Assembly (NCBI GenBank): GCA_037969565.1
Contig: JBBKXQ010000008.1
Location: forward strand, 14,527 to 78,526
Source of the DNA: Acidimicrobiales bacterium
GTDB lineage: Bacteria; Actinomycetota; Acidimicrobiia; Acidimicrobiales; SZUA-35
DNA: 64,000 bases
Direction: 5' to 3'
The notes beneath the pieces are model-generated. The model ran no database searches. It was given only the letters and a program-made list of their open reading frames with translations, and was not told the origin of the DNA. This document shows, one piece after another, positions 24,421 through 52,059 of this stretch (position 1 is the first letter of the stretch; the number at the start of each line of letters is the position of its first letter). Both the position numbers and the translations under genes were made by a program.

Positions 24421-24434
24421 GGGCCGTTGGTCCC
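24421..24434 (-). promoter_or_regulatory. DosR/DevR-like box B1 (GGGCCGTTGGTCCC)
   Basis: 14-bp quasi-palindrome. Its centre lies 42.5 nt upstream of the CBS start codon at 24385. Confidence 0.55.
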
Positions 24435-24455
24435 GGTGCGGAATACACCGATCGC

Positions 24456-24469
24456 GGGACGTTCTGCTC
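24456..24469 (+). promoter_or_regulatory. DosR/DevR-like box B2 (GGGACGTTCTGCTC)
   Basis: Conserved distal half-site GGGAC. Centre is 42.5 nt upstream of GTG 24505, with GACGAT at -12..-7. Confidence 0.45.
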
Positions 24470-24504
24470 TCCCCGAGCCCCGAACAATTCCTGACGATGA
24501 AACG

Positions 24505-25431
24505 GTGACTTCCCGGCAACTCGTCATCCTGGGATCATCCAGCCAAGTGCCAACAAGGGACCGCGCCCAGAATGGCTACGCAGTTCAGTGGGATGAGCAG
24601 CTGTTTCTGTTCGATCCGGGCGAGGGATTTCACCGTCAGACACTCTTGGCCGGAGTGGCGATCTCACGAGCGAACGCGCTGTTCATCTCGCACTTTCACG
24701 GAGATCACTGCCTTGGCTTGCCGGGCCTCATCCATCGCCGCTTGCTCGAACCCGGCGTCCCTCTCTTGCCGACCTTCTATCCCTCCGAAGGCGAGGGAAT
24801 CCTCGACATGCTGATGCACGCAAGTTTCGACAGCACCCCTCCGGCGCTCGAGCTACGTCCGGTGATGGGTTCGGGCTCGCTCGGCCATTTGGGTGACCTC
24901 GAAATCACCGCTGCTCGTCTCGAGCATCCCGCGCCGACCTACGGGTATCGGATCTCGGAGGTTGACTCGATCGGATTCGATGCACGAAAGCTGAAAGCGG
25001 CCGGTCTGACCGGGAAGGCGGTCGGCGATCTCGAGCGCGACGGGAAGGTCATGACGCCGCAGGGCCGTCTTCACCGCGCTGATTTCGAACAACCCCGACC
25101 TGGCCAGTCGATTGCATTCGTCATGGACACCGCATTCTGTGATGCTGCTCTGACGCTCGCCCACGGAGTGGACCTTCTGATCTGCGAAGCGACTTTCCTC
25201 GAAAGTGATCGACGGCTTGCCGACGAATCTGGCCACATGACAGCCCGCGACGCCGGGCGGCTGGCGAGCGAGGCGGGAGCACGTCGGGTGGTCCTCTCCC
25301 ACTTCTCGGCTCGATACTCCGATGCAGCCAAGTTCGGCGAGGAAGCAGGCGAGCTGCACCCGGATGTCGTCGTGGCTCGTGACCTGGCTCGGATTCCGTT
25401 CCCGTTGCGGGTCCCGAGGGGAAAGGCCTGA
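24505..25431 (+). CDS. MBL-fold hydrolase, ribonuclease Z/BN-like
   Basis: LVILGSSSQVPTRDRAQNGY...LFDPGEG and the HxHxDH motif ISHFHGDHCLG. GTG 24505 was chosen because the annotated upstream part overlaps the promoter boxes. Confidence 0.7.
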   Translation: MTSRQLVILGSSSQVPTRDRAQNGYAVQWDEQLFLFDPGEGFHRQTLLAGVAISRANALFISHFHGDHCLGLPGLIHRRLLEPGVPLLPTFYPSEGEGILDMLMHASFDSTPPALELRPVMGSGSLGHLGDLEITAARLEHPAPTYGYRISEVDSIGFDARKLKAAGLTGKAVGDLERDGKVMTPQGRLHRADFEQPRPGQSIAFVMDTAFCDAALTLAHGVDLLICEATFLESDRRLADESGHMTARDAGRLASEAGARRVVLSHFSARYSDAAKFGEEAGELHPDVVVARDLARIPFPLRVPRGKA

Positions 25432-25461
25432 CAACCTTGGCGGGAAGTCGGTTGGAGACAA

Positions 25462-25998
25462 CTAGAGGTTGAGCTGGCGGCACCGCCGGGCGAGCATGGT
25501 TCCCCATTCCTCGGCCCGTTCCTCCTCGCCGACGAGAAGTGGCCCGTCGCTCCCGTCGAGCAGGAAGCTTTCGGGACCTTCCATCGGCGTGAAGCCGTGG
25601 CGATGGAGACGCCGGGCGATTCCCCGGGCGGCCGATCCTGTCAGGATCGAGGGTTTGTTGATTCGGGTGTCGAACGCCAAGCCCATCTGACTGGATGCCC
25701 GCGGCAGCGAGTCGAGCCAATCCCGAAGCGCGGGAGCGGTCGCGGAATCGTCGAGCTCGACATCAGGGCTTTCGGCGGCGTGTTTGATCGCCACCAGACG
25801 GCTCGATTCGGTTGCGATGCCGTGCTGATGTGTCGGCCCTCCGACCACGACCACATCGGCCCCGACGATCTCGTCAACAGTGATGTCGTCCGTACCCCCG
25901 ACCTTGATGGGACCGACCTTGCCCAGACCTCGGGCGATTGCCTCGGCAATCGTGTGCGTATGGCCGTACATCGATTCGTAAACCAGGACTGACTTCAT
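25462..25998 (-). CDS. Flavodoxin-fold protein
   Basis: Starts MKSVLVYESMYGHTHTIAEAIARGL, a flavodoxin-like FMN phosphate-binding N-terminus. Confidence 0.7.
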   Translation of the reverse strand: MKSVLVYESMYGHTHTIAEAIARGLGKVGPIKVGGTDDITVDEIVGADVVVVGGPTHQHGIATESSRLVAIKHAAESPDVELDDSATAPALRDWLDSLPRASSQMGLAFDTRINKPSILTGSAARGIARRLHRHGFTPMEGPESFLLDGSDGPLLVGEEERAEEWGTMLARRCRQLNL

Positions 25999-26096
25999 TT
26001 CGGAACTCCTCTCGGCTCTCGCCAACGACACGACGAGTCGATGGCCTGTCGTCACATTGACGCCACGTGCCCGGCCGGAGCAGAGGCGAAGGTCGG

Positions 26097-27293
26097 CTAT
26101 TTCGCTGGGCCCGACGGAGCATCGGAATTCGGCGTCACCAGGTGACGGAGAATGACGGCAACGCCGCCAGCGCCCACCCGATCGTCATCGGGCGGCGAAA
26201 CAATCACGCGGGCTCCCGTTTCCAGCGCTCGCTGAACGGCGAAATCGAACCAGTCGTGGGATGGCATTCGGTCGGCGACGAAGAGGGTGTCGACCGTGCC
26301 GGCGGTGATGTAGTCGATGGCACCCGCCAAACCCCGCACGGCTCGACCGCCGATCCGAAGTCCCGAGACCAATCGGTCGAGGGCCTCGTTGATGGTTTGT
26401 GTTGTAGCGGATTCAACGGCTGCGATTGCAGCCAGCCGAATCCGATCGACCGACTCGGGCTCGTGCCGTCCCCCTGCTTCGGCCTTCAGAGCCGACCAAC
26501 GAACGTCTTCGGGCAGTTGGGCCAGGATGAATACGCAGGCCCGCACATCACCGGAGATCACGACGTGTTTCGTCCCGAGCTCGGCCGCCAGCTTGTCCAA
26601 CTTGTCGGCAACGAGTGCGGCGTTTGCCTCCCAGACTTGTTCCGCTCGGGTCTGATAACGGTGTTGCGACCACCCTCCCTGTGCCGCTCGGTGGATGAAT
26701 TCCTCTTGACCGGTCACGGTTGCCACTTGGTCGATCCCAGCAGGCGACACCGCGAAGATGTCGGCGCCGACTCGATCGGCCAACGCCGCGAGTGTCAGAT
26801 CGTGACGGGCAAGCTCGGCCATCACCGGCACGAGTCGGGGCAGTCGTCCAACCACGGCCGCTTCGCGATCTCGGTCCTGTTCGTTTCGCAGCTGGCAGAA
26901 GGCCGAACTGTCGCGGTTTGCCGTGACGAGAACGGTGCCTCCGTCCGGTGGCAGTTGGCGTACCAACTGGTCCATTTGTGCGAGCGCTGCATCGGGGGCG
27001 CCGCGATGGCGAAGTTGAACCTGGCGTGAGTGCCAGCGGCTCTCGAGCGCATCCGGACCTGACCCGGGCCGTGGTGGCCGGATGATGGTTGTGAGATGGG
27101 GACCCGGGAGGCGATAGCGATCCAGGACGTCTGAAGTTGTACGAAGCTCGTAGTCCAGTCTCCGTTGTGTCTGGGTGAGTGGCATGTCTTGACCCCCTTG
27201 GCTGTGTCCGGTCAAGGTAGGAAACGGCTCGCTCATCGCCCAGGGTCGAAGGTCACTGACCCAGTCGTCCCCCGGAAAGTTCTCTGAACACAA
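26097..27293 (-). CDS. Bacterial eRF1-like (baeRF / Vms1-Ankzf1-like, Rv2629-type) protein
   Basis: FIHRAAQGGWSQHRYQTRAEQ aligns by eye with the eRF1 GGQ loop (KHGRGGQSALRFARLR). The C-terminal region resembles eRF1 domain 3. Start uncertain (27293, 27236 or 27185). Confidence 0.6.
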   Translation of the reverse strand: MCSENFPGDDWVSDLRPWAMSEPFPTLTGHSQGGQDMPLTQTQRRLDYELRTTSDVLDRYRLPGPHLTTIIRPPRPGSGPDALESRWHSRQVQLRHRGAPDAALAQMDQLVRQLPPDGGTVLVTANRDSSAFCQLRNEQDRDREAAVVGRLPRLVPVMAELARHDLTLAALADRVGADIFAVSPAGIDQVATVTGQEEFIHRAAQGGWSQHRYQTRAEQVWEANAALVADKLDKLAAELGTKHVVISGDVRACVFILAQLPEDVRWSALKAEAGGRHEPESVDRIRLAAIAAVESATTQTINEALDRLVSGLRIGGRAVRGLAGAIDYITAGTVDTLFVADRMPSHDWFDFAVQRALETGARVIVSPPDDDRVGAGGVAVILRHLVTPNSDAPSGPAK

Positions 27294-27304
27294 ATCGAGG
27301 AGGC

Positions 27305-27318
27305 GGGCCCTTCGACCC
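27305..27318. promoter_or_regulatory. DosR/DevR-like box B3 (GGGCCCTTCGACCC)
   Basis: Located in the divergent region between the eRF1-like gene and ppdK, 88 nt (centre) upstream of the ppdK ATG. Confidence 0.4.
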
Positions 27319-27399
27319 TACGGGGCACGGATCTAGCTCGACAGCATGGGGGGCAGGCCCCGGGACGCGCCCGAGGTGATCAGAAAGGTCGCGATCGCC

Positions 27400-30126
27400 A
27401 TGACGACGTGGGTGTACGGGTTCGATCAGGTTGATGAGGCCGAAGCGGCCGTCGGCGGAGAGTGGGAGAGGGTCCGGGGACTTCTCGGTGGCAAGGGCGC
27501 CAACCTCGGCGACATGACGAGACTGGGTGTTCCGGTGCCTCCTGGCTTCACGCTCACCACCGAGGCATGTAATGCCTACACGGCGGCTGACGGTGAGATG
27601 CCCCCGGGTATGTGGGACGAGACCTTGGCGGCCATGGCACTTCTCGAGGAGAAGTCCGGGAAGAAATTCGGCGACGCCGTGAACCCTCTGCTCGTTGCCT
27701 GTCGGTCAGGGGCGAAGTTCTCGATGCCGGGGATGATGGACACCGTCCTCGACATCGGTTTGAACGACGAGGTCGTCGAAGCGATGATCGACGCAACTGG
27801 CGACGAGCATTTCGTACTCGACTCCTATCGGCGGCTCATTCAGATGTTCGGCGGTGTCGTTCTCGGTGTTGCCGACCAGCAGTTCGAAGGTGTTCTGGCC
27901 GGCCAACGCCACGTTCGTGGAGTGACGAGCGACGCCGAGTTGACGGTCGGCGACCTTCGTGACGTGATCGAATCCTTCAAGTCGATCGTGGCCCGGCACG
28001 GCAGTGTCCCGTTTCCAGCCGATCCGTACGAGCAACTCCGGATGGCCGTCGAGGCAGTGTTCGACAGTTGGGGCGGTAAACGAGCCCACGACTATCGGGT
28101 AGCGGCCGGCATCGCCCACGATTTGGGGACGGCCGTCAATGTCGTCGCCATGGTGTTCGGAAACATGGGGAACGACTCGGCCACCGGAGTGGCGATGAGC
28201 CGTGACGCAACGTCGGGCGAGCCCATCCTCGAGGGCGACTACTTGATCAATGCGCAGGGCGAAGACGTCGTTGCCGGTATCCGGCCGACGAAACGCATCT
28301 CTGAGCTCGCCGGTGACATGCCGAGGGTGGCCGCAGAATTCGCCGAGATCGCCAAACGACTCGAATTGCATCATCGAGACATGCAAGACATGGAGTTCAC
28401 CGTCGAACGGGGAAAGCTCTGGATTCTCCAGACGCGAGCCGGAAAACGCACCGCGCAGGCGGCGGTTCGGATCGCCGTGGACCTCGTCGAGTCCGGGCTC
28501 ATCACCAAAGAAGAGGCCGTCCTCCGCATCAGCCCGGAACAGATCGACTTCTTCCTCCACCCCCAGTTCGATCTGGGTGCGCTGGCGGCTGCACCGTTGT
28601 TGGCCAAGGGTTTGAACGTCTCGCCGGGGGCCGCGGTCGGGGTGGCCGCATTCGATCCCGATCTGGCCGAGCGATGGGCGGGCGAAGGGCGCCAAGTCAT
28701 TCTCGTACGACCGGAAACCAAACCCGATGATGTCCACGGCATGCTCGCCGCGGCCGGGATTCTCACCTCGAGCGGAGGACGCACGAGTCACGCCGCCCTG
28801 GTCGCAAGGCAATTCGGCAAACCGGCCGTGGTTGGCGCGACGGAGATCGACATCGACCTCGCGAGGAGGACCCTCACGGTGGGCGGCAACGAGATTCACG
28901 AGGGTGAGTGGCTGTCCGTTGATGGGACGACCGGCAGGGTTTACGAGGGTCAAATCGCGACGAAAGCCCCTGATGTCGAGAACCGCTGGCTTTCGACAAT
29001 CCTCGACTGGGCCGACGATTTTCGAACGCTCGGCATTCGTGCGAATGCCGACGACCCTGTGGAGGCCAAGCGGGCCCGGAACTACGGCGCCGCCGGTATC
29101 GGTCTCTGCCGCACCGAGCACATGTTCTTCGACCCGGCGCGGCTACCGATCGTGCAAGCGATGATCACGGCGGAAACGCCGGCCGAGCGGCGCGAAGCCA
29201 TTGCTGCTCTTCTGCCGCTGCAACGAGGCGACTTCGCCGGGTTGTTCCGGTCGATGGCCGGTCACCCGGTGATCATTCGACTGCTCGACCCTCCACTTCA
29301 CGAGTTCCTTCCGAGCTTCGACGATCTGATGCGACAGTCCGCCGACCTCCAGATTCGATTGATCAACGCCGCCAACCTGGCGTCGGTCGAAGAGTTGGTG
29401 GATGAGTTGGCGGCAGTCCGCAACATGATCGAACGGGTTGCGACGCTGCGAGAAACCAATCCGATGTTGGGATTGAGGGGGGTCCGTTTGGGCCTGAAGA
29501 TTCCCGAGCTCATCCGGATGCAGACGCGGGCCATCGTCGAGGCCGCGATCGAAGTGAGGCGGGAGGGCATCGATGTTCGTCCGGAGGTGATGGTGCCGCT
29601 GGTGAGTCACGCTTCGGAAATGGCGGCCGCCCGGGCGCTCATCCAGTCGGAAATGCAAGCCGTGTTCGAGGAATTCGGCGAGGAGATCGACGTACCGGTG
29701 GGAACCATGATCGAGGTTCCACGGGCCGCGCTGACGGCGGGCGAGATCGCGAAGCACGCCGACTTCTTTTCCTTCGGCACCAACGATCTCACACAGATGA
29801 CGATGGGAATGAGCCGCGACGACGCCGAGGCGAGCTTCCTGCTCGGCTATCTGGCCGATCGAGTCATCACGGCCAATCCCTTCCACACGATCGACGTGGC
29901 CGGTGTGGGTCGGCTCATCGAGATGGCGATCTCCGACGGACGTGCGACGAACCCGAACTTGACGGTTGGGATCTGCGGCGAACACGGTGGCGAACCTGCG
30001 TCGATCGCGCTCTGCCACCGTCTCGGTCTCGACTACGTCAGTTGCTCGGCCTACCGCGTCCCGGTCGCTCGACTCGCCGCGGCCCACGCCGCACTCGCCA
30101 CGGCGCCTGCCGCCGCCGATTCGTGA
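27400..30126 (+). CDS. ppdK: Pyruvate, phosphate dikinase
   Basis: MTTWVYGFDQ...LLGGKGANLGDM, phosphohistidine region GGRTSHAALVARQFGKP, C-terminal PEP-utilising TIM barrel. GAAAGG lies upstream of ATG 27400. Confidence 0.9.
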   Translation: MTTWVYGFDQVDEAEAAVGGEWERVRGLLGGKGANLGDMTRLGVPVPPGFTLTTEACNAYTAADGEMPPGMWDETLAAMALLEEKSGKKFGDAVNPLLVACRSGAKFSMPGMMDTVLDIGLNDEVVEAMIDATGDEHFVLDSYRRLIQMFGGVVLGVADQQFEGVLAGQRHVRGVTSDAELTVGDLRDVIESFKSIVARHGSVPFPADPYEQLRMAVEAVFDSWGGKRAHDYRVAAGIAHDLGTAVNVVAMVFGNMGNDSATGVAMSRDATSGEPILEGDYLINAQGEDVVAGIRPTKRISELAGDMPRVAAEFAEIAKRLELHHRDMQDMEFTVERGKLWILQTRAGKRTAQAAVRIAVDLVESGLITKEEAVLRISPEQIDFFLHPQFDLGALAAAPLLAKGLNVSPGAAVGVAAFDPDLAERWAGEGRQVILVRPETKPDDVHGMLAAAGILTSSGGRTSHAALVARQFGKPAVVGATEIDIDLARRTLTVGGNEIHEGEWLSVDGTTGRVYEGQIATKAPDVENRWLSTILDWADDFRTLGIRANADDPVEAKRARNYGAAGIGLCRTEHMFFDPARLPIVQAMITAETPAERREAIAALLPLQRGDFAGLFRSMAGHPVIIRLLDPPLHEFLPSFDDLMRQSADLQIRLINAANLASVEELVDELAAVRNMIERVATLRETNPMLGLRGVRLGLKIPELIRMQTRAIVEAAIEVRREGIDVRPEVMVPLVSHASEMAAARALIQSEMQAVFEEFGEEIDVPVGTMIEVPRAALTAGEIAKHADFFSFGTNDLTQMTMGMSRDDAEASFLLGYLADRVITANPFHTIDVAGVGRLIEMAISDGRATNPNLTVGICGEHGGEPASIALCHRLGLDYVSCSAYRVPVARLAAAHAALATAPAAADS

Positions 30127-30143
30127 TGGGCAACACCCCCGAC

Positions 30144-30590
30144 TCAGTGGAGCAAACGCCCGGTGATCTCTGTGGGATCGATCCGCACCCAAACGGGTCG
30201 CCAATCAGCACGAGCCCAGGGGATCAGACCGATCTGTTCGAGTTGGGCGATCTCAGCCCAATCGGTCACTTCTCGGGCATCACCTTTGATGACGACGCTC
30301 CAGCCGCTCCAATTGGCGGTGTTCCACTGATCGACCTCGAAACACACCTTCTGACCCCCGCTGGCCGCTGCGAGTTTCTGGCCGTCGACCGTTCGGAAGA
30401 CGATGGAGTTCTCGAACCAGGCGAAGTTGACCGGAAGGACCAGCGGCCCTTCATCAGTGACGAACCCAATGCGTCCGATCGGAGTCGACGCGCTCAGGTC
30501 GATGCACTTCTGCGGCTCGAGAACCCGCAGTGTTCCCGGCGCAGCGGGTTTCGCCTCCGTCGCTCCCGTGTCGTCGGTTCTGCTGTTCAT
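30144..30590 (-). CDS. Pyridoxamine 5-prime-phosphate oxidase (PPOX) family protein
   Basis: 148 aa from MNSRTDD; IGRIGFVTDEGPLVLPVNFAWFENSIVFRT...WSVVIKG. The remainder of the 692-aa ORF is antisense to PFOR. Confidence 0.7.
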   Translation of the reverse strand: MNSRTDDTGATEAKPAAPGTLRVLEPQKCIDLSASTPIGRIGFVTDEGPLVLPVNFAWFENSIVFRTVDGQKLAAASGGQKVCFEVDQWNTANWSGWSVVIKGDAREVTDWAEIAQLEQIGLIPWARADWRPVWVRIDPTEITGRLLH

Positions 30591-30701
30591 GATCAGTTCT
30601 CCCCGTGGTCGGCGGGCGCTGCTGGGTCCCGCAATCTTGTGATCCCAGTGAACGTCGGAGACCGCGTCGTAGTCCAGAGTCCAAGGTCCGAAAGGTGAGT
30701 C

Positions 30702-33700
30702 ATGCCCGAACATTCCAACCTCACGGTTGACCAACACATCACCGTTGACGGGAACGAGGCAGCAGCGAGGGTTGCTCATCGTGTGAGCGAGGTGATTGCC
30801 ATTTATCCCATCACGCCGGCGTCGTCGATGGGTGAACTGGCTGATGCTTGGTCGCACGCGGGCAAAGAAAATCTCTGGGGGGCGGTGCCCCACGTGGTCG
30901 AGATGCAGAGCGAGGGAGGTGCCGCAGGTACGGTGCACGGAGCGCTCCAGGTCGGTGCACTGACCACCACGTTCACGGCTTCGCAGGGTCTCCTCCTCAT
31001 GATCCCGAACCTGTACAAGATTGCGGGAGAGCTCACCCCGGCCGTGGTTCATGTGGCGGCTCGATCGATTGCCACCCATGCGCTGAGCATCTTCGGAGAT
31101 CACAGCGATGTCATGGCAGCGCGACAGACCGGAATGGCGATGCTGGCTTCCGGGTCGGTGCAGGAGGCCCAAGATCTGGCACTGATTGCCCACGCCGCAA
31201 CGCTTCGAACTCGCGTTCCGTTCCTTCACTTCTTCGACGGCTTTCGCACCAGTCACGAAGTGGCGAAGATCGTGGCTGTTCGAGACGAGGTGATGCGATC
31301 GATGATCGACGACGACCTGGTGATGGCCCATCGGCTCCGGGCGCTGAGTCCTGATGCGCCGGTGGTTCGCGGCACCGCACAGAACCCCGATGTCTTCTTT
31401 CAGGCCCGGGAGGCAGCGAACCTTTTCCACCTCGCTGTTCCGGACGCCGTGCAGGTCGAGATGGATCGGTTCGCCGCCTTGACCGGGCGGCACTATCAGC
31501 TCTTCGAATACCGGGGCCACCCGGCGGCCGAGAGGGTGGCCGTGGTGATGGGCTCCGGTGCCGGCACGGTGGTCGAAGCGGTGGAGGCGATGGCGGCGCT
31601 CGGCGAGCGGGTGGGCGTCGTGACCGTTCATCTCTATCGACCCCTCGATGTTGCCGCTCTTGTCGAGGCCCTTCCCGTGACGACTCGTCGAATCGTCGTT
31701 TTCGATCGGACGAAGGAACCTGGCTCGGCCGGTGAGCCGCTCTACCTCGATGTTGTTGCTGCGCTGGCCCAGAAGTGGAGAGGGACCCCGATTCCGGCCG
31801 TGATCGGTGCGCGGTTCGGCCTGTCGTCGAAGGAGTTCACTCCCGCGATGGTCCTCGGAGTTTTCGCCGAGCTCGCCGCCGACGAACCCCGCAGAGAGCT
31901 GACGGTCGGCATTGTCGACGATGTCACGCACCTCAGCGTCGAATACGACCCGGCAGCATGGAAAGAACCCGACTCGGTGACCCGTGCGGTCTTTTACGGC
32001 CTCGGAAGCGACGGCACCGTCGGAGCAAACAAGAACTCGGTGAAGATCATCGGGGAACTGACCCCTCTTCACGTGCAGGGCTATTTCGTCTACGACTCGA
32101 AGAAGTCTGGCTCGACGACGGTTTCCCATCTCCGGTTCGGCCCCGACCCCATCCGATCCGCCTACCTCGTACAGGAGGCGAACTTCATCGGCGTACACAA
32201 CTTCGCAGCGTTCGATCGCCAAGACGTCCTTGCCCTTGCCGCCGAGGGTGCGACGCTGCTGATCAATTCGCCTTTCTCGCTGGAGGAAACCTGGCGACGA
32301 TTGCCGGTCGAGGCGCAGGCGGTGATTGTCGAGAAGGGGCTGGCGGTCTGGGTCGTCGACGGCGGGGCCGTGGCTCGAGCCAGTGGCCTCGGGAACCGCA
32401 TCAACACGGTTCTTCAGACGTGCTTCTTCTCGTTGTCAGGGCTGCTCCCCGCCGACCAGGCAGCGGAAGCAATCAAGGCTTCCATCGCCAAGACTTACGG
32501 CAAGGGTGGCCAGATGGTGCTGAAACGGAACTTTGCCGCCGTGGACGGTGCGCTGGATGCCCTCCACCGTCTCACCGTGCCGGACGATGTTGGTGACGCA
32601 CACCGTCGCCCAGCACCCGTCCCGACCGCGGCTCCAGACTTCGTGCAGAGGGTCACCGCCAGAATCATCGCCGGCGATGGCGATCTGCTTCCGGTCAGTG
32701 CCCTGCCGGTCGACGGTACCTTCCCAACCGGAACGGCTCGGTGGGAAAAGCGCTCGATCGCATCGGAGATTCCGATCTGGGATCCGGAGATTTGCATCGA
32801 CTGTGCCCGATGTGCGCTGGTTTGTCCCCATGCCGCCATTCGCCTCAAGGTCGTGTCCGTCGAACAAGTGGCAGATGCGCCGTCGAGCTTTCGCCACAAA
32901 CATTTCAAGGAGACGAAACCGGGTGACGGGGCCGGCCCGGAACGGCGGGCCATCATCCAGGTGGCGCCTGATGACTGCACCGGTTGTGGCGTCTGCGTGA
33001 GCATCTGCCCGGCGAAGAGCAAGGAGGCCGTCAAGCACAAGGCGATCAACATGGAGGCGATTGCCCCGAACCTCGAAGACGAGCGAGTGAACTTCGACTA
33101 CTTCCTCGGCTTGCCCGAGCACGATCGCGTCACCTTGAAACTCGATTCGGTGAAGGGTTCACAGCTGGCCCAACCGCTCTTCGAATTCTCCGGGGCGTGT
33201 GCGGGGTGTGGGGAAACGCCCTACCTCAAGTTGCTCACCCAACTGATGGGCGATCGCCTCGTCATCGCCAATGCAACCGGTTGCTCGTCGATCTATGGCG
33301 GGAACCTGCCGACAACCCCATGGACCGTTGATCGAGACGGTCGAGGGCCGGCCTGGGCGAACTCGTTGTTCGAAGACAATGCCGAGTTCGGTCTCGGGAT
33401 GCGGCTCGGACTCGATCACCACAACGCTTCGGCCCGCCATCTTCTCGGCGAGCTCGCTGGAGAAATCGGACCCGTGGCGCTGGAGATACTGGAGAACGAA
33501 CAGGCCGACGAGTCGGGCATCGCCCGACAACGAGCGCTGGTCGCAGAATTGCGATCGTGGCTGCACTCCAATCCGGGCCCACTCGCCGATCGACTCGCGT
33601 CACTTGCCGAGCATCTCGTCACGCGCTCGGTTTGGCTCGTCGGCGGTGATGGCTGGGCTTACGACATCGGCTTCGGAGGCGTTGATCACGTGCTCGCCTC

Positions 33701-41594: not shown

Positions 41595-41655
41595 GCACCC
41601 AACCGAGAACACAGTCGAGCAGACACCAGTAGAACAAAACCAATAGGAAGGCAAC

Positions 41656-42176: not shown

Positions 42177-42211
42177 TGGGGGGCCGACCAGACCACGTCC
42201 ACGCTTGACGC

Positions 42212-43375: not shown

Positions 43376-43833
43376 CCGCACGAAGCGAGCAGTTCGACGA
43401 TGCGCCTGGTCACCACCGGAACTGCGTCGGCAACTGCTTCGGTCAAGGTGTCGAATTGCCCACAGCGCTCCACTTCCACGCCGATGACAACGAGTTGTTT
43501 CGGCAGCCGGTCGAGCAGGCGTCCGAGTTCGATCCCCTCGGCAAGGCCCACGCCGTGGCTGGAAAGCAGTGTGTCCTCGGTTGCCAATCGGTGTCGCAAC
43601 GCGTCAGTCTCGACGATGCTGCCTGCGGGTCGTCCGCTCACCATGGCGTCGACGACAACGACGACGTGGTCGGGGCTCCAACGCAAGGCCAGGTCGGATA
43701 GATCTCCCTCCGCGATGTAGGTCTCGACCCATGGTTCGATCATGGGGCGCAAGGTGTCGATCACGATCGGACCGAATCCGTCATCGCCCCGGTCGCGATT
43801 GCCGACGCCGATCACGAGCGGCGGCCGGCTCAT
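43372..43833 (-). CDS. Hydrogenase maturation endopeptidase
   Basis: [19 protein letters not shown] and LVVIGVE motifs. Overlaps the large-subunit stop. Confidence 0.8.
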
Positions 43834-45158: not shown

Positions 45159-46006
45159 GACGGTTCCCCTCTACCGGTTCTACCGAACGCGACGGCCACC
45201 TCTGTCGGGGACCGCCGGTTCGCTTCGTCTCGGAACGGTTGGGCCCAGCCGTTGTAGCTTCGGAACGTTCGGGCGATCTCGGCGTCATCCATGCCCAGAT
45301 GAGTCAACTGCTGAGCCAGGGACTGGGTGTTCGGGCTTTCCATCGGGCCGAAGCATCCGTAGCAGCCTCGGTTGTAGGCCGGGCAGAGCGCGTTGCATCC
45401 AGACTGGGTCACGGGGCCGAGGCAGGGAGTTCCGTGAGCGACCATGATGCATGGGTTCCCCCTGGACTTGCACTGGACACAAACGCTCGTGGTCGGGATC
45501 CGCGCCGGCCTACCCGCGAGATGCGCTGCGATGACCTCGACGAGTTGACCCCGATCGATGGGGCAACCGCGTAGTTCGAAGTCGACTTCGACGTGGTCTG
45601 CGATCGGGGTGGAGGTTTCGAGGGTCGAGATGAATTCCGGGTGGGCGTACACGATGCCCATGAACTCCTCGATGTTTGCTCCGTTCCGGAGCGCCTGAAT
45701 TCCTCCCGCCGTGGCGCAGGCGCCGATGGTGATCAGTGAGCGTGACTGCCGGCGAATCTCGACGATCCGCTCGCGATCATGTTGAGTCGTGATGGACCCT
45801 TCGACGAGAGAGACGTCGTACGGACCCGTGGCCATCCTGCTCGAGGCTTCGGGGAAGTAGGCAATGTCGAGGCGGCCGGCGACTGCCAGCAAATCGTCTT
45901 CGCAATCGAGAAGGCTCAGCTGGCAGCCATCACAAGACGCGAACTTCCAGACGGCGAGTGTCGGGTTCGGGGGTCGGGACTTCGTTGCGCTTTCGATTCG
46001 TGACAT
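45155..46006 (-). CDS. hyhS: [NiFe]-hydrogenase small (delta) subunit, group 3b-like
   Basis: Starts MSRIESATK; [18 protein letters not shown]...[13 protein letters not shown]. Confidence 0.8.
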
Positions 46007-46019
46007 GGATGTCGACCTC

Positions 46020-46904
46020 TCAGAGTTCTCGCACGCGGTGGAATCGACCAACGTCGGCGTAGTTGACCACCGGACCATCTCGGCAGATGAGGAAAGGGCC
46101 GAGCTGGCAGTGGCCACACAGCGCGTTGCCGCACTGCATGTTTCGCTCGAGCGTCAGCCAGAGGCGGTTCTCGGGCACACCGAGTTCGTGGAGCGCCAAT
46201 GCGGTGAAATGCATCATCACGTCAGGGCCGCAGATGAAGACAGTGGTGTCGGTCCAGTCGACGCCCAGTCCGGCGGGAGTGCCGAGCAGGTCGGTGACGA
46301 GTCCGACCGAGCCCGCCCATGCGTCATCGCCCTGGTCGACAGTGAGCCGAACGTCCAACCCCAGCTCGCTCCACCGATCGAGGTCGCCTTGATAGAGGAT
46401 GAGATCGGGCCGCTTTGCTCCGTAGACGAGGGCCAGATCGTCGAATCTGCTGCGCTCTTCGATGGCCAGATCGATGAGGGCACGAAGTGGGGCGATACCC
46501 AGGCCACCACCGATGATCACGAGGTTCTTCGTAGCAATTGTGTCCAATGGCCAGCCTTCACCGAACGGACCGCGCACGGTGACAACTCCTCCGATCGGCA
46601 CCTCGGTGAGTGCCCGCGTGATTGGGCCGGCTCGTCGGATGGTGTAGGCGTGATGCGATCGAGTCGAAAGCGGCGAACTGATCGAGATGGCGGCTTCACC
46701 GACCCCAAAGGCTCCGAGCATGCTCACCTGGGCCGGTCGGAAGGCGGGGAGTTCACCCTCCACCGGCACCACGTGAAGTGAAAAGGTGTCGTCCAATTCC
46801 TGGATTCGGTCGATCACCCGAAAGGGTCTCGGGACGAGGAGTGGCGAGAGTTCCGAGCGATCTCGGACGGGTACGAGGCCGGATTTCGAGTCAGTTGGTG
46901 CCAT
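46020..46904 (-). CDS. hyhG: Hydrogenase gamma subunit (FAD/NAD(P)-binding, 2Fe-2S)
   Basis: Ferredoxin-reductase-like fold ([22 protein letters not shown]) and a C-terminal [12 protein letters not shown] cluster motif. Confidence 0.75.
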
Positions 46905-48045
46905 GCCCGGGAATCCTTTCCCGCTGCACTGTTCCGCGCATTTCGGCGACCTCGATCGTGAGATCGATTCCCACGGGACACCAGGTGATGCAGCGCCCAC
47001 AACCAACGCAGCCGGATTCGTCGAACTGATCGATCCAACTGGCGAGTTTGTGCACGAGCCACTGGCGATATCGGGACTTGGTCGAGCTGCGATGAGGGCC
47101 ATCTCCGAGATGGGAGAATTCGAGGCTGAAGCAGGAATCCCAAACTCGCCACCGGTCGGTGATGTCGCCGCTCAGGTCGGTGACGTCCTCGAGATTGGTG
47201 CAGAAGCAGGTGGGGCAGGCGAGCGTGCAGTTCCCGCAGCTCAAACAGCGTTCGGCCACGTCGTCCCAGCGGGGATTCTCCAAGTTGTCGTAAAGGTGAT
47301 CCTTGATCCCGTTCGTATCGAGCTTTCGCACGATGCGGCTCGCCGCATTCTCGACGACACCTCGTGCGGCTTGCTGCTCGGTCGGGCTGGTGGGCGACGT
47401 CGCGATGTCGGCTAGTACGTCGGCGCCACGGTCGGAGCCGACCTCGACGACGTAACGCACGTCGGCCCCGTCCACGAGTTCGGTCAGTGCAAGATCGAAA
47501 CCTGATTTCGCTTCCGGACCGGTTCCCATCGACGTGCAGAAGCAGGTGCTGGCCGGATCACCGCAGTTCACGGCAATCAGGAATGCGTGGTCTCGATTGG
47601 TTCCGTAGACGGGATCGGGGTGAGGACCTTCGAGTAGGACTCGGTCCTGCTTTGCGATTGCTGCGAGCTCGCAAGGGCGGACTCCGAGAAATGCCCGGAG
47701 CAGTGGTTCGGGTTCGTGCATTCGCACGTCGAGGTCGCCGGTTTCTGTCCGCCTCATCGTCCACACGGGAGACCGGGACGGATGCAGGAGTTCTTTCCAC
47801 GACTGTGGCCCAACGGCATAGCCGAATCTGGCTCCGTCCTCTCGTGGGACGAGTCGGTAGCGACCGCCCTGCTGCTCGTCGGTCCAACCGAGCGGGAGGT
47901 CAGCGACGGACGTCAGCCGATCATGGGCGATGACCCCGTTCTGAACCTGGGGTCCGAAAACTTCGTAGCCGCGACCACCGAGTGCGTTGATCAGGTTTTG
48001 CAGGCCGTCGAGACCGAGAGAGACCGCGGTGCTGGTCGCCATCAC
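46891..48045 (-). CDS. hyhB: Hydrogenase beta subunit (4Fe-4S dicluster)
   Basis: [16 protein letters not shown] and [18 protein letters not shown] 48045 is immediately followed by ATG 48042. Confidence 0.75.
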
Positions 48046-48077
48046 TCCAGTTTCCGCTGAGTCTGATGTCTCGCACA

Positions 48078-48091
48078 GGGACTTTGGTCCC
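48078..48091 (-). promoter_or_regulatory. DosR/DevR-like box B8 (GGGACTTTGGTCCC)
   Basis: The best palindrome of the set, one mismatch from the M. tuberculosis core GGGACTTTAGTCCC as I recall it. Centre is 42.5 nt upstream of ATG 48042, with GAAACT at -12..-7. Confidence 0.6.
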
Positions 48092-48097
48092 TCCGGA

Positions 48098-48111
48098 GGG
48101 ACGTTCGACTC
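48098..48111. promoter_or_regulatory. DosR/DevR-like box B9 (GGGACGTTCGACTC)
   Basis: Second, half-degenerate box 20 nt (centre to centre) from B8, in the hyh/fadD divergent region. Confidence 0.3.
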
Positions 48112-48194
48112 TGGCCGACAACCACAAGACTGTCATCAATGGAACCATCGATGGTGGCGTTCGACCGACCGAATGCAGTGAAAGGGACGAGATC

Positions 48195-49985
48195 ATGAAG
48201 AAGGATGCATCTGGGCCGCAACTCGAGGCCCACCAAGGCAATCGCAGCGCAGTGGCCGCCGTGGCCCAACGCGCAGCCGAATCTCCCGACACGGCATTGG
48301 CCGCAGTCCGACAAGGCAATCACTTCATCGACCGATCGTGCGCAACAGTCTGGGCCAGGGTGCGCGGACTCGCCAAAGGGCTGATCGCATCCGGCGTGGC
48401 GCCGGGCGATCGGGTTGCGCTCATGGCAAGCACCCGGCTCGAGTGGCTCGAGATCGATCTCGCCATCAATGCAGTCGGAGCCGTCACGGTGCCGATCTAT
48501 GACACATCCTCGGCCAGCCAGATCAGTTGGATCATGGAGGACAGCGGTTCGGTGCTCCTCATCGTCGAGACCGACGTTCTGGAGGTCGAAGCCAAAGCAA
48601 GCGGAGAGGTCGATGAGTGCCGAGAGATCCTCGTCATCGACCGCGGGGATCTAGACGACTTGGCCCATCGAGGCTCGCAGGTAGCTGACGAAAGGCTGGA
48701 TGCACTCGTCGATTCCATCAGACCGGAATCCATCGCGACGATCATCTACACCTCTGGTACGACGGGTCGTCCCAAGGGATGTGTTCTGACGCACAGAAAT
48801 CTGGCAGTGAACGTCTACCAGGTCGGTGACGCCCTGGCTGGTGCCATCGGTCCCGCGGATACCGCACTGCTCTTTCTGCCGTTGGCCCACGTGCTCACGA
48901 AGACGACCGCGCTTTTCTGTCTTGGTGCCGGCGTTCGGATCGCCTTTGCGACTTCTCTGGCGAAGCTTCCCGAGGAGTTCGCGCTGGTCAATCCGTCACT
49001 CATTTCGGCGGTCCCGCGGATCTTCGAAAAGGTGTATGCCAAGGCTCAGCAGAAGGCCCTGGCCGACGGGAAGGGGCGGATTTTCGACCGCGCCGCCCAG
49101 ACGGCGATCCACTGGTCGCAACAACGCGAGGCCGGCTCGATCCGGCTCACCACGAAGGCCGAACACTGGATCTTCGACCGCTTGGTGTATCGCAAGATCG
49201 CCGCCGCTTTCGGAGGCGAATTGCGAATGGCGTTCAGCGGAGGAGGGCCGCTGGGCGAGCGGCTGACGTGGTTCTTCGACGGTGTCGGCCTCCGGATCTA
49301 CGAGGGCTACGGACTGACGGAGACGAGTCCGATTCTCACGATCAGCCGAACAGACGGCTGGCGACCAGGCTCGGTCGGACGGGCTGTGGCCGGAACACGA
49401 ATTCGCGTGGCCGAAGATGGCGAGTTGTTGGTGAAGGGTCCGCAGGTTTTCGGGGAGTATTGGAAGAATGCGGCAGCCACCGATGAGGCTTTCGACTCCG
49501 ACGGGTGGTTCCTCACGGGGGACGTCGGCGAGGTCGATGCTGCTGACTTCGTTCACATCACGGGGCGTAAGAAGGAACTGATCGTGACAGCCGCGGGGAA
49601 GAACGTGGCACCGGCCCCGCTCGAGGATCGAATTCGGTCCGACGCCCTCGTGAGTCAGGTCGTGGTGGTGGGGGACCGGCGGCCGTTCATCGCCGCGCTG
49701 GTGTCGATCGACGAGGATGCATTTGTCGACTGGTCGGCCGGGCACGGTCTCGCCGGCGCGACGGTGGCTGAGTCGACGGAGAACCAGTTGCTCAGAGCTG
49801 AAGTCCAGGGCGCGATCGACGAGGCAAACCGTTCCGTTTCCACAGCTGAGTCGATCCGTGCCTTCGCCATCACCCCTCGCGATTTCGCTCTGGACCGTGA
49901 TGAGATCACGCCAACGCTCAAGATCCGCAGGATGGTCGTTGAAGATCACTACCGGGATCTGATCGAGTCGATCTACGCCGGATAG
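48195..49985 (+). CDS. Long-chain acyl-CoA synthetase (AMP-forming)
   Basis: AMP-binding motif IIYTSGTTGRPKGCVLTH; YEGYGLTETSP; GWFLTGDVG. ATG 48195 follows AAGGGA. Confidence 0.85.
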   Translation: MKKDASGPQLEAHQGNRSAVAAVAQRAAESPDTALAAVRQGNHFIDRSCATVWARVRGLAKGLIASGVAPGDRVALMASTRLEWLEIDLAINAVGAVTVPIYDTSSASQISWIMEDSGSVLLIVETDVLEVEAKASGEVDECREILVIDRGDLDDLAHRGSQVADERLDALVDSIRPESIATIIYTSGTTGRPKGCVLTHRNLAVNVYQVGDALAGAIGPADTALLFLPLAHVLTKTTALFCLGAGVRIAFATSLAKLPEEFALVNPSLISAVPRIFEKVYAKAQQKALADGKGRIFDRAAQTAIHWSQQREAGSIRLTTKAEHWIFDRLVYRKIAAAFGGELRMAFSGGGPLGERLTWFFDGVGLRIYEGYGLTETSPILTISRTDGWRPGSVGRAVAGTRIRVAEDGELLVKGPQVFGEYWKNAAATDEAFDSDGWFLTGDVGEVDAADFVHITGRKKELIVTAAGKNVAPAPLEDRIRSDALVSQVVVVGDRRPFIAALVSIDEDAFVDWSAGHGLAGATVAESTENQLLRAEVQGAIDEANRSVSTAESIRAFAITPRDFALDRDEITPTLKIRRMVVEDHYRDLIESIYAG

Positions 49986-50019
49986 CGGCCTGCGACTGCC
50001 TGTGGCAGACCGGGGACTC

Positions 50020-50044
50020 ATACCGGGTGGGACGTGCCCGGTAT
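50020..50044 (+). terminator. Hairpin (8-bp stem ATACCGGG/CCCGGTAT, 9-nt loop) 35 nt after the acyl-CoA synthetase stop
   Basis: Perfect inverted repeat read directly from the sequence. No U-tract. Confidence 0.3.
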
Positions 50045-50156
50045 CGAAGTCGTGCAGCTTGCTGGCTCTCGTGGGATGCCCGACGAAGTCCATGCCTTGG
50101 CGGGGGCGTGTGACCGTGATGAACACGGTTGGAGGCTCATGCCAGAGACGCGAACG

Positions 50157-50188
50157 CGGTTCGAGCCCCCTTGCGAGGGCTCGAACCG
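50157..50188 (-). terminator. Hairpin (12-bp stem CGGTTCGAGCCC/GGGCTCGAACCG, 8-nt loop) 39 nt after the stop of the minus-strand membrane protein gene
   Basis: Perfect inverted repeat between convergent genes. A second small palindrome GTCGAT-TAT-ATCGAC lies at about 50198-50212. Confidence 0.4.
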
Positions 50189-50226
50189 TTCTGACTGTCG
50201 ATTATATCGACGAGGGTGTCTCCGTG

Positions 50227-50943
50227 TCAGCTGACCTTGACTTGCGTCTTCGGCCCGTTGAGGAACTCCTCGGGGACGGTGTCGGGGAAGTCGACCTCCG
50301 TCTTCTTGCCTCTGATGGCCCACACCAGGCCACCACCGGTCAGCATGAATGTCAGGCCGAGTGCGGCGAACAAGCCGGAGAGTGCGAGGCCCATTTGTAG
50401 GGTCGAGTGGGTGACGGTGCCAACACCGAGCTCGCCGATCAGGCCGTGAACGGTTCCGCTCCACGCCTGCTCACGAGCCGGTCCTTCGATCGGGTGTGAG
50501 CGGTCGAAGTCGGTCCAGTAGCGGCCGCCGACATTGAACTCATAGGTTCCGGCCGTGAAGACCTCACCGTTGTATTCCACGTCCTCGGGAAGGACCACCG
50601 TCTGGGTGCCGTTCAGCGTGTGATAGCTGACGGTTGCCATCTGGTACATGTACTCCGTAGCAGTGTTGACCAGCGGGTCGTTGGGGTCAAGATCGCCCCT
50701 GACAACCGGGAACTTCCAATCGTCGGTGAGCGTGGCCATGATGGCGTCCGCCCCTTCGGTTGTGCCTCGGTCGGTCAGCTGGCCGGCTTCGTTGTAGGTG
50801 AGCTCCACAGCCTGGGCTGCGCTGAAGGCTTGGAGTGAGTCGTAGCCGTCCTGGACTCGGCCGTAGGCGACGCCACCGGCCACCAAGAAGCCCAGCCCGA
50901 CTGCCAATAGTGCATATCCAATCAGCTTGAGTCGGTTCCTCAT
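50227..50943 (-). CDS. Membrane protein (N- and C-terminal TM helices flanking an extracytoplasmic domain)
   Basis: 238 aa from MRNRLKLIGYALLAVGLGFLVAGG, with C-terminal TM GLALSGLFAALGLTFMLTGGGLV. No family recognised. Confidence 0.5.
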   Translation of the reverse strand: MRNRLKLIGYALLAVGLGFLVAGGVAYGRVQDGYDSLQAFSAAQAVELTYNEAGQLTDRGTTEGADAIMATLTDDWKFPVVRGDLDPNDPLVNTATEYMYQMATVSYHTLNGTQTVVLPEDVEYNGEVFTAGTYEFNVGGRYWTDFDRSHPIEGPAREQAWSGTVHGLIGELGVGTVTHSTLQMGLALSGLFAALGLTFMLTGGGLVWAIRGKKTEVDFPDTVPEEFLNGPKTQVKVS

Positions 50944-50998
50944 GACATCTTCTCCTCGTTTGGTAGATCGCAGATCGTTCTGCGATCGCTTGAAACGA

Positions 50999-51442
50999 TC
51001 ATTTCGCCAAACGACGATTGGCGACAGGGACCTTCGTCCCGAAGCACGGAGAATCTTCGGCAGGTCGCTCGAGGCCGAGTTCTGCAACGCCGAGCTCCGC
51101 GATGCCATGGGCGAGTTCGAGCAGAGCGGTTGGTTGCAGCCGATAGCGAACATTCGGTCCGTCTTGGCACGCACAGATGAGGGCGGCTTCACGGAGAAGC
51201 CGGAGGTGTTCGGAAATGGTGGATCGAGCCAGTCCCGATTCCACGGCGATGTCTCCAGCCGCAAGCGAGCGATGGGTCGCCAGTTCTGCGACGATCGACA
51301 CTCTCGCCGGATGGCCGAGGCTTCGGGCTTGTAGAGCCAGCCGTTCGATTCTCGCCCGCTCTGACGCAGGCTGACCGAGCTCGCAGCGCGGGCCGAAACC
51401 TGATGGTGAGGCGGTGCGCTTGCAGGGGGGCAAGGAGACCAT
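50999..51442 (-). CDS. ArsR/SmtB family transcriptional regulator
   Basis: LGHPARVSIVAELA...GDIAVESGLARSTISEHLRLLREAALI wHTH. The start abuts the USP stop. Confidence 0.75.
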   Translation of the reverse strand: MVSLPPCKRTASPSGFGPRCELGQPASERARIERLALQARSLGHPARVSIVAELATHRSLAAGDIAVESGLARSTISEHLRLLREAALICACQDGPNVRYRLQPTALLELAHGIAELGVAELGLERPAEDSPCFGTKVPVANRRLAK

Positions 51443-51931
51443 TTAGTCCTCCGGTCCTGGATTGTGGACAACCAAAACACTGCACGTCGCGTGATGAACA
51501 ATCTTGGTCGAGACGCTGCCGAGCAGCAGGCGTTTGCCGACGCCATGGCCCCGACTGCCCACAACGATCAGGTCGCCATCGCGCTGCTCGGCCGTGGCCA
51601 GTAAGCCATCGAACGCGGTGCCGATGATGGCGTGCCGAAACACCTTGATGCCGCGTTCGTGGAGCCCCAATCGTTGGAGCTCGGCTTCGGCCGAAACGAG
51701 ATGGTTCCTGGCGATTTGACCCATCGCTTCGGCATCTGCGTCGTGGCCGTCCAACTCGCCAGCGAAGTCTCCCATTCTCCACCCGACAAGCGGGTGGTAG
51801 CACGAAACGAGATGCACTTCCACGTTGTTCGCAGCGGTGTTCGCAGCGGCGAGAGCCAATTCTCCCGCCCGCTCGACCGCGGCCGATCCTCCGGCGGATC
51901 CGTCTGTCCCGACAACGATTCGCTCGTACAT
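51443..51931 (-). CDS. Universal stress protein
   Basis: MYERIVVGTDGS...LIVVGSRGHGVGKRLLLGSVSTKIVHHATCSVLVV. Confidence 0.9.
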   Translation of the reverse strand: MYERIVVGTDGSAGGSAAVERAGELALAAANTAANNVEVHLVSCYHPLVGWRMGDFAGELDGHDADAEAMGQIARNHLVSAEAELQRLGLHERGIKVFRHAIIGTAFDGLLATAEQRDGDLIVVGSRGHGVGKRLLLGSVSTKIVHHATCSVLVVHNPGPED

Positions 51932-52045
51932 GGCTGCTCCTGTTCGGCAGGGACCGCTGATCTCGGTCTCGCGTTCAGTTCAACGCTTGTCGTCGTTGAC
52001 GAATTCGACCATGGCCAAAGGTCCTCGAAAGCGTCAGCTTTTGTT

Positions 52046-52059
52046 GGGCCCTCCGACCC
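52046..52059 (+). promoter_or_regulatory. DosR/DevR-like box B10 (GGGCCCTCCGACCC)
   Basis: One mismatch from box B3. Centre is 43.5 nt upstream of GTG 52096, with CAGGCT at -13..-8. Confidence 0.45.

Follow-up and report, generated by a model that had tools for sequence, protein, structure and literature searches.

We analysed a 64-kb window (64,000 nucleotides, the whole stretch of contig JBBKXQ010000008.1 under study; 63.5% G+C) from an Acidimicrobiales bacterium. Genes were mapped with a self-trained codon-usage caller and then annotated with Pfam and NCBIfam. According to these gene calls, an island of ~30 genes occupies positions 23266..53091, and over a 28-kb stretch of it a 14-bp inverted repeat with the consensus GGGAC-SWWS-GnCCC, referred to below as the box, recurs at a fixed distance from about 15 promoters, in front of genes coding for universal stress proteins (USPs), CBS-domain proteins, PPOX-like flavoproteins, flavodoxins, and a group 3b [NiFe]-hydrogenase. 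The boxes are very probably operators of a response regulator of the DosR/DevR family (NarL/LuxR-type, acting as a dimer with a GerE helix-turn-helix domain). The system type, the DosR/DevR-OsdR regulon, is known from mycobacteria and Streptomyces; what is new is its occurrence in Acidimicrobiia and its single-box, often leaderless architecture, and no new mechanism is involved. No paper pairing DosR with Acidimicrobiia was found in the literature searched.

The boxes share a predicted layout, in which the box is followed by 23 nt, a -10 hexamer of the form NANNNT, a further 6 nt, and the predicted transcription start site (TSS, +1). A composite weight matrix combining the box and the -10 hexamer at this fixed spacing was trained on 11 window sites. 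An earlier note on this DNA had listed ten boxes, and all ten 14-mers are present exactly where it placed them; with corrected gene starts they are all intergenic, as it stated, save for the box at 38142, which reaches into the 3' end of the Flavodoxin_5 gene and covers its final codons in part. Five sites lie beyond that list (51027, 27243, 38836, 52012, and the marginal 21664). Among the four weak look-alikes that the note also named, those at 40069, 40616, and 26083 carry a -10 hexamer at canonical spacing, while the one at 30677 does not. The sites are listed below, with positions past a box written as box+n and scores given in bits.

21664-21677, minus strand: marginal candidate of 14.4 bits within a TrkA_C gene, 75 nt upstream of a Na+/H+ exchanger gene (20354-21553); could be an internal promoter or a chance match
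24421..24434, minus strand: box GGGACCAACGGCCC; -10-like TCAGAT (24392-24397); ATG 24385 (CBS) at box+36; 20.8 bits, leave-one-out 16.0
24456..24469, plus strand: box GGGACGTTCTGCTC; -10 GACGAT (24493-24498); GTG 24505 (RNase Z-like metallo-beta-lactamase, MBL) at box+36; 23.4 bits
26083..26096, minus strand: weak box CCGACCTTCGCCTC; CAATGT at canonical spacing, overlapping the GTG start of a flavodoxin gene; a manual reading of low confidence
27243..27256, minus strand: new box GTGACCTTCGACCC; -10 TACCTT; predicted TSS ~27207; candidate target the Rv2629-like gene (and flavodoxin operon); 17.6 bits
27305..27318, plus strand: box GGGCCCTTCGACCC; -10 CAGCAT; predicted TSS ~27354; candidate target the pyruvate phosphate dikinase (PPDK) gene; 21.5 bits
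30677..30690, no strand assigned: weak look-alike GAGTCCAAGGTCCG, flanked by the PPOX-like gene 30144-30590 (minus) and the pyruvate:ferredoxin oxidoreductase (PFOR) gene
38142..38155, minus strand: box GGGACGAAAGCCCT; -10 TAGCGT; predicted TSS ~38106; candidate target the operon of sulfide:quinone reductase (SQR), DsrC/TusE, DsrE, and PPOX; 14.6 bits
38786..38799, minus strand: box GGGACCTTCGCCCC; -10 GACAAT; predicted TSS ~38750; candidate target the Flavodoxin_5 gene; 25.0 bits
38836..38849, plus strand: new box CGGACCTCCGACCC; -10 GAGGAT; predicted TSS ~38885; candidate target the GNAT gene; 17.5 bits
40069..40082, minus strand: weak box GTGACATTTGACCC; box 40108 follows 39 bp downstream; minus-strand -10 CACGCT; 13.1 bits; may be a distal site or else belong to a divergent promoter
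40108..40121, plus strand: box GTGACCTTCTGCTC; -10 AACGAT; ATG 40157 (putative leaderless USP) at box+36; 22.7 bits
40616..40629, plus strand: weak box ATGACTTCGGCCCC; perfect -10 TAGTTT at canonical spacing; predicted TSS ~40665; composite score <8 bits, a manual reading; candidate targets the tandem-USP gene 40692-41594 and, probably, the CBS gene 41656-42063
42163..42176, plus strand: box GGGACCTTGGGCCC; -10 CACGCT; ATG 42212 (387-aa PPOX-domain protein) at box+36; 22.4 bits
48078..48091, minus strand: box GGGACCAAAGTCCC; -10 GAAACT; ATG 48042 (Fer4_22, hydrogenase operon) at box+36; 21.0 bits
48098..48111, plus strand: box GGGACGTTCGACTC; hexamer ATCAAT; predicted TSS ~48147; candidate target an acyl-CoA synthetase-like gene; 22.7 bits
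51027..51040, minus strand: perfect box GGGACGAAGGTCCC (also GGGACCTTCGTCCC); -10 AATGAT; predicted TSS ~50991; 21.5 bits
52012..52025, minus strand: new box AGGACCTTTGGCCA, from a mismatch-based scan; -10 AAGCGT; predicted TSS ~51976; <8 bits on the matrix; would drive the USP gene 51443-51931 (minus) and probably also the ArsR-family gene 50999-51442 (minus)
52046..52059, plus strand: box GGGCCCTCCGACCC; -10 CAGGCT; GTG 52096 (putative leaderless tandem USP) at box+37; 17.9 bits

The spacing between the box and the sequences that follow it provides the strongest evidence within the window. Both strands were read 3' of each of 11 boxes (22 box-strand combinations) at offsets 1-50, and A-N3-T, which stands for the A and T conserved at -11 and -7 in the actinobacterial -10 hexamer, was scored. 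A-N3-T was found 25-29 after the box in 11 of the 22 combinations, and in three or fewer at any other offset (binomial P = 1e-11; ~6e-10 after correction for 50 offsets). NANNNT stands exactly 23 nt past the box in 10 of the 11 boxes. An ATG or GTG codon is located exactly at box+36 in 5 of the 11 sites (p = 1e-5) and at box+37 in one more, and these codons open real genes (24385, 24505 (GTG), 40157, 42212, 48042, and 52096). The fixed spacing to both the -10 hexamer and the start codons puts the box centre at -42.5, and a start codon at box+36 implies a leaderless mRNA. These six or so island genes, including the first gene of the hydrogenase operon, appear to be leaderless. Independent support for GTG 24505 comes from the NCBIfam RNase Z model, whose residue 1 aligns to residue 1 of the protein begun there, and the corrected starts of the PPDK (27400), SQR (38039), and Rv2629-like (27185) genes fit the predicted TSSs. 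The spacers between the box and the -10 hexamer are unrelated in sequence, so the arrangement is not a duplicated segment. Many boxes are paired, 20-62 bp apart, in divergent intergenic regions, with each box being the -42.5 site of one promoter.

The same geometry bears on the reading of the boxes as repressor operators, bound by the ArsR-family regulator that is encoded within the island (50999-51442) or by an OmpR-type protein, or as RNA/DNA hairpins (terminators, attenuators), for which the palindrome could fold into a 5-bp stem with a 4-nt loop; the box at 38142 lies directly after a stop codon. However, the box is located upstream of the -35 position rather than over the -10 hexamer or the start site, would be untranscribed in most units, and is not followed by a T-run, while the -10 hexamers are mostly weak (NANNNT), which fits dependence on an activator. 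OmpR-type regulators bind direct repeats. No Rfam family matches anywhere in the window, which gives no hint of a known RNA in the palindromes. We consider an origin of the boxes as repressor sites or hairpins highly unlikely.

Chance was considered as well, since short GC-rich palindromes are common in a genome of 63.5% G+C. An a-priori pattern, GGGMCNNNNGKCCC, which was built from the published DevR and OsdR cores, gives 195 matches, mainly in coding sequence, when up to two mismatches are allowed, and the lax pattern GGGACNTTNGTCCC with 2 mismatches is weakly and uninformatively enriched (15 vs. 8.9 expected). Against this, GGGNCNNNNGNCCC occurs nine times, with 3.03±1.58 occurrences expected and with none of 100 dinucleotide shuffles reaching nine. 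With at most one mismatch, GGGMCNNNNGKCCC has 20 matches, 8 of which fall in the non-coding 9.3% of the window (binomial p = 2.5e-4); the same scan also exposed the box at 51027. The composite model yields 16 matches at 14 bits or more, with 0.8 expected from Markov shuffles, and all 16 are in the 21.6-52.1 kb interval. In leave-one-out scoring, the 11 sites retained 13-22.5 bits, save for 38142.

Conservation in other genomes was evaluated at hydrogenase loci, numbered here with the prefix L. The nearest relatives of the hydrogenase large subunit (84% identity or less) come from metagenome-assembled genomes of Acidimicrobiia, Acidimicrobiales, and Ilumatobacteraceae, not from mycobacteria, and a mycobacterial source of the DNA was rejected on these grounds. 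The test set comprised 22 Acidimicrobiia loci (425 kb) and 58 loci of other phyla (866 kb in total, 315 kb of it with a G+C content of 60% or more). The matrix trained solely on the window found 37 sites of at least 16 bits in the 425 kb from Acidimicrobiia and none at that threshold in the 866 kb from other phyla. At least 12 loci (L001-L005, L009, L010, L012, L014, L015, L023, and L030) have a box, and often two, 5' of the first gene of their orthologous group 3b operon. The box is kept in these loci while the flanking sequence diverges, and thus constitutes a phylogenetic footprint. The statistics on spacing and across species exclude chance as the origin of the boxes, and we assign practically no probability to the possibility that they are functionless.

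The two halves of the box are not equal. When the 11 boxes are oriented by their -10 hexamers, the distal half hardly varies, with 3 mismatches to GGGAC, and the proximal half is degenerate, with 15 to GTCCC. The same tendency is seen in relatives (L001-L018, L023, L030, L031, and L055): the half that fits less well is the proximal one in 37 of their boxes and the distal one in 17 (p = 0.009). In the window, nine of the 11 boxes have A at position 4, but just two have T at its symmetric counterpart, position 11 (p = 0.009). The proximal half-site abuts the -35 region. Of the 11 strong boxes, nine keep all four positions that are essential in DevR sites (G3, C5, G10, and C12 of the 14-mer); 24456 and 40108 do not. 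The box centre is mostly CTTC, GTTC, or CTTG, and neither the TTS...SAA flanks nor the TWWA centre of the 20-bp consensus is conserved.

The DevR/DosR regulon of Mycobacterium tuberculosis (Mtb) and its Dev boxes were reportedly described by Park in 2003. The core of the DevR half-site is G4G5G6A7C8, with G5 and C7 (18-bp numbering) being essential for binding, and the proximal DevR box is located at -42.5 at the tgs1 and Rv3131 promoters (PMC3177182, Chauhan 2011) and at approximately -43.5 at hspX (PMC13486717). Every Mtb DevR promoter contains 2-4 tandem boxes ~21 bp apart (PMC3177182). According to a cryo-EM structure, DosR, once activated and bound to such a box as a dimer, brings in RNA polymerase by way of sigma-A region 4 and of the C- and N-terminal domains of the alpha subunit (alpha-CTD and alpha-NTD; PMC13486717). 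In Streptomyces coelicolor, the OsdR/OsdK system (SCO0204/0203) has a DosR orthologue, OsdR, with the consensus AGGGCCGATCGGCCCT, and its regulon includes a USP-rich island with a divergent USP/PPDK promoter (PMC5069765, Urem 2016). Finally, the M. smegmatis genes msmeg_3932-3955, homologues of the DosR regulon that include a devR copy, adjoin the Hyd3 operon (msmeg_3931-3927), and both were induced by low O2 in the same experiment (PMC2799521, Berney and Cook 2010).

The earlier note had proposed that a regulator of the NarL-family type, encoded elsewhere, drives the island. Three of the related loci lend support to this proposal. In L016, L023, and L030, tblastn detects full-length homologues of Mtb DosR (51-53% identity) 3-5 kb from the hydrogenase operon. 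These proteins have receiver plus GerE architecture and share the recognition helix FLAEKTVKNYVS with Mtb DosR letter for letter, with the DNA-contact residues K179, K182, and N183 among the shared positions. The best match of the L016 homologue in the PDB is DevR (3c3w; 1.1e-66, 227 bits), with VraR (136 bits) and NarL (98 bits) well behind, and the Mtb DosR query agrees with 3c3w across the aligned region. NCBIfam offers no model specific to DosR, and its top-scoring family, MadR, stays under the cut-off, so orthology was judged from the PDB ranking.

Boxes are also met in the regulator's own promoter in all three of these relatives. In L016, a box is located 67 bp upstream of the dosR homologue, and a boxed, putatively leaderless PPDK-like gene follows. 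In L023 and L030, the dosR homologue is divergent from the hydrogenase operon, the intergenic region shared by the two contains three boxes, and one of them, GGGACCTTGTTCCC, has the canonical spacing to a -10 hexamer for the dosR homologue itself. The three boxes fit within 58 bp (7139-7196 in L023, 7142-7199 in L030), with centres 16 and 28 bp apart, a packing that is denser than in the window and unlike the 21-bp phasing of Mtb. In L023, the dosR homologue is followed by a PAS-GAF-HisKA_3 kinase gene and then by a boxed, apparently leaderless tandem-USP gene.

FNR class II promoters typically contain 5-N4-5 palindromes at -41.5, and the boxes work like the sites of such promoters to the extent that both would involve a dimeric activator at a 14-bp 5-N4-5 palindrome centred 41.5-42.5 bp upstream and in contact with sigma region 4 and alpha; protein family and half-site sequence differ, and membership is not proposed. 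The boxes could nevertheless be genuine activator sites at approximately -42 for another dimeric regulator, either of the CRP/FNR family or LuxR-type but not DosR, with the resemblance to DevR sites being convergent. The lack of a DosR gene within the window and the scarcity of Mtb-style tandem boxes agree with such a regulator. On the other side, no CRP/FNR-type factor was found in the island, the sole cNMP-binding domain being fused to a major facilitator superfamily (MFS) transporter (5476-7113). DosR homologues with an identical recognition helix adjoin the same operon and boxes in the three related loci, and the half-site GGGAC/GTCCC is of the DevR/OsdR type, not TTGAT or TGTGA (PMC3177182, PMC5069765). 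A regulator other than DosR at these sites is, in our view, improbable.

Several observations weigh against assigning the boxes to a DosR/DevR-family regulator. Pfam and NCBIfam annotation detects no LuxR/NarL-type (GerE) regulator in the 64-kb window; tblastn with the DosR C-terminal domain against the window gives a best E value of 1.1; and both response regulators present are OmpR-type, paired with HAMP-HisKA kinases. The absence of the regulator gene from the window is in line with what the earlier note had stated. Mtb-type tandem boxes (~21 bp) were not found in the window except for 48078/48098, 20 bp centre-to-centre, the other box pairs being back-to-back divergent promoters 34-62 bp apart. 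There was also no secondary-site enrichment at 20-21 bp around the window boxes, in a scan that highly degenerate secondary sites may escape. All predicted start sites are deduced from the DNA sequence. The box at 38142 reaches only 5.8 bits in leave-one-out scoring, boxes 24456 and 40108 have a poor promoter-proximal half, TGCTC, with T at position 10, and no convincing box was found in the window for the PFOR operon. In a de novo search for dyads in intergenic vs. coding sequence, GGGCC-N4 (p = 1.4e-4) and GGGAC-N4 (p = 8e-4) were the top dyads once those explained by start or stop codons were set aside, but neither is significant after thousands of tests; because this search is not significant alone, a-priori patterns and spacing were used instead.

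The earlier suggestion of a DosR/DevR-like regulon signature is nonetheless borne out by the motif match, the -42.5 position, and the gene content. Together with the published DevR and OsdR work, the sites, their geometry, their conservation, and the regulator of the relatives make class-II-type activation by a DosR orthologue the most likely mode of action. We infer that a DosR orthologue of the source genome binds the boxes, that it activates rather than represses, and that the signal is O2, NO, CO, or redox state. The regulator, whose gene would be located outside the window, would be phosphorylated and bind the box centred at -42.5, immediately upstream of the -35 position, where it would recruit RNA polymerase in a class-II-type manner, as in the Mtb DosR structure. 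It would thereby switch on 13 to 17 promoters over the 28-kb island.

The genes that the earlier note had named downstream of the boxes (USP, CBS, PPOX, hydrogenase, SQR, Rv2629-like/PPDK, and flavodoxin) are as it described them, according to Pfam and NCBIfam. Core groups of the DosR regulon are found directly 3' of boxes, and include five USP genes, two CBS genes, an Rv2629-family gene, four PPOX-like genes, and two flavodoxin genes. The Rv2629-family match scores 121 bits, which is under the NCBIfam cut-off. The genes of the island that concern us here are as follows.

Start 24385, minus strand: CBS gene, with a phosphoribosyltransferase (PRTase) gene in the island
24505-25431, plus strand: RNase Z-like MBL gene (NCBIfam)
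25462-26055, minus strand: flavodoxin gene with an annotated GTG start
26097-27185, minus strand: Rv2629-like (baeRF_family2) gene with the ribosome-binding site (RBS) AAGGGGG
ATG 27400, plus strand: PPDK gene, corrected start, protein begins MTTWVYGF
30144-30590, minus strand: PPOX-like gene, 148 aa, assigned by eye from the translation
30702, plus strand: PFOR gene, with a dihydroorotate dehydrogenase (DHODH)-like gene
38039 to 35362, minus strand: operon of type III SQR (ATG 38039, RBS AAGGAG), DsrC/TusE, DsrE, and PPOX
38139-38696, minus strand: Flavodoxin_5 gene (Pfam)
38928-39863, plus strand: GNAT gene
40157-40603, plus strand: USP gene
40692-41594, plus strand: tandem-USP gene
41656-42063, plus strand: CBS gene
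ATG 42212, plus strand: gene for a protein of 387 aa that ends in a PPOX domain
48042 to 43372, minus strand: five-gene group 3b [NiFe]-hydrogenase operon
48195 (probable ATG) to 49985, plus strand: AMP-binding (acyl-CoA synthetase-like) gene
50227-50943, minus strand: membrane-protein gene
50999-51442, minus strand: ArsR/SmtB-family regulator gene
51443-51931, minus strand: USP gene
52096-53091, plus strand: tandem-USP gene, GTG 52096

The hydrogenase operon codes for a Fer4_22 iron-sulfur protein, which comes first, an NAD-binding protein, the small subunit, the large subunit, and a HycI-type maturation protease. The island as a whole looks like a survival programme for hypoxia and reductive stress. 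It would comprise USP and CBS proteins, the Rv2629-like protein (a putative ribosome hibernation factor), PPOX-like flavoproteins, flavodoxins, PPDK, PFOR, the SQR/DsrE/TusE sulfide module, and the NAD(P)-linked group 3b hydrogenase, which could vent surplus reductant as H2.

The window regulon resembles that of Mtb DevR in the palindromic core GGGAC-N4-GTCCC with its essential G and C positions, in the proximal position overlapping the -35 region, in divergent promoter pairs that share boxes, and in its targets (USPs, a Rv2626c-like CBS protein, a Rv2629-like protein, and flavoproteins); the regulator of the relatives is 51-53% identical to the Mtb protein with an identical recognition helix. 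The two differ in the spacer, which is SWWS (CTTC, GTTC) in the window vs. TWWA in Mtb, and in the flanks, as TTS/SAA is not conserved in the window. They also differ in the number of boxes, mostly one per promoter in the window vs. an obligatory 2-4 in tandem, and in the degenerate proximal half of the window boxes. The window regulon adds PFOR, PPDK, the group 3b hydrogenase, and SQR/DsrE/TusE, while hspX, nitroreductases (acg), tgs1, and narK2 are absent within the window, and the host belongs to Acidimicrobiia, not Mycobacteriales.

The OsdR consensus AGGGCCGATCGGCCCT shares the 5-N4-5 core, and the GGGCC...GGCCC type is represented by several boxes of the window. The Mtb flanks and the TWWA centre are missing from the Streptomyces variant, too (PMC5069765). 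Other similarities to the OsdR system include a clustered island rich in USP genes and autoregulation, with which the boxes in front of the dosR homologue in the three relatives may be compared. In contrast, the centre of the Streptomyces sites is GATC or GGTC, while CTTC and GTTC prevail in the window, and OsdR also targets developmental genes and nitrate reductase, with no hydrogenase or PFOR reported in its island. The M. smegmatis island msmeg_3927-3955 is similar in that a group 3b operon stands beside USP and other DosR-regulon-like genes, and L023 and L030 also have a devR copy in the island; the window island, from another class, differs in having no regulator gene and in containing PFOR, PPDK, and sulfide-oxidation genes.

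These results extend the tuberculosis dormancy switch, which is of medical importance, to Acidimicrobiia, a deep-branching actinobacterial class most of whose members are uncultured and which abounds in soil, water, and wastewater. They yield an operator model, a promoter map, and a regulon that are open to direct testing in Acidimicrobiia, and they predict genes for survival of oxygen loss, with H2 production via PFOR and the group 3b hydrogenase and with ribosome hibernation. They also offer a natural comparison between DosR activation from one box and from tandem boxes. A broader proposal, which we put forward tentatively and regard as possible rather than probable, is that a DosR-type switch is ancestral to all Actinomycetota instead of being confined to Mycobacteriales and Streptomyces. 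The simpler Acidimicrobiia version would act from one asymmetric box per promoter, centred at -42.5 and strong in its distal but weak in its proximal half, and would often serve leaderless genes. As its core output, it would have sulfide handling together with a fermentative module that evolves H2 (PFOR, flavodoxin, PPDK, and the group 3b hydrogenase). If this is true, the mycobacterial "dormancy" regulon would be a derived form of an ancient reductive-stress programme.

Some features of individual sites and genes should also be mentioned. Boxes 24456 and 40108 (GGGACGTTCTGCTC and GTGACCTTCTGCTC) share an unusual right half and centre, TTCTGCTC; both precede putative leaderless genes at box+36, and they may represent a distinct sub-class of sites. 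The box at 51027, which was absent from the earlier note, is located within the 3' end of the ArsR-family open reading frame (ORF), 90 bp upstream of the membrane-protein gene that is its candidate target. The ArsR-family gene (50999-51442, minus strand) is probably co-transcribed with the USP gene 51443-51931, and its product may constitute a second regulatory layer in the island.

The gene 30144-30590 (minus strand) was overlooked by the gene caller, being masked by a long spurious ORF, and falls in an apparent 575-bp intergenic region between PPDK and PFOR; its protein matches no NCBIfam family, and the PPOX label is a reading of the translation alone. With 564 bits, the SQR-like protein (36777-38039, minus strand) passes the 525-bit cut-off of the NCBIfam model "type III sulfide quinone reductase, selenoprotein subtype"; its ORF contains no in-frame TGA, so it is presumably the Cys-containing form. 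The DsrC/TusE, DsrE, and PPOX genes are co-oriented directly 3' of SQR, in the vicinity of the group 3b hydrogenase, an enzyme of the "sulfhydrogenase" type.

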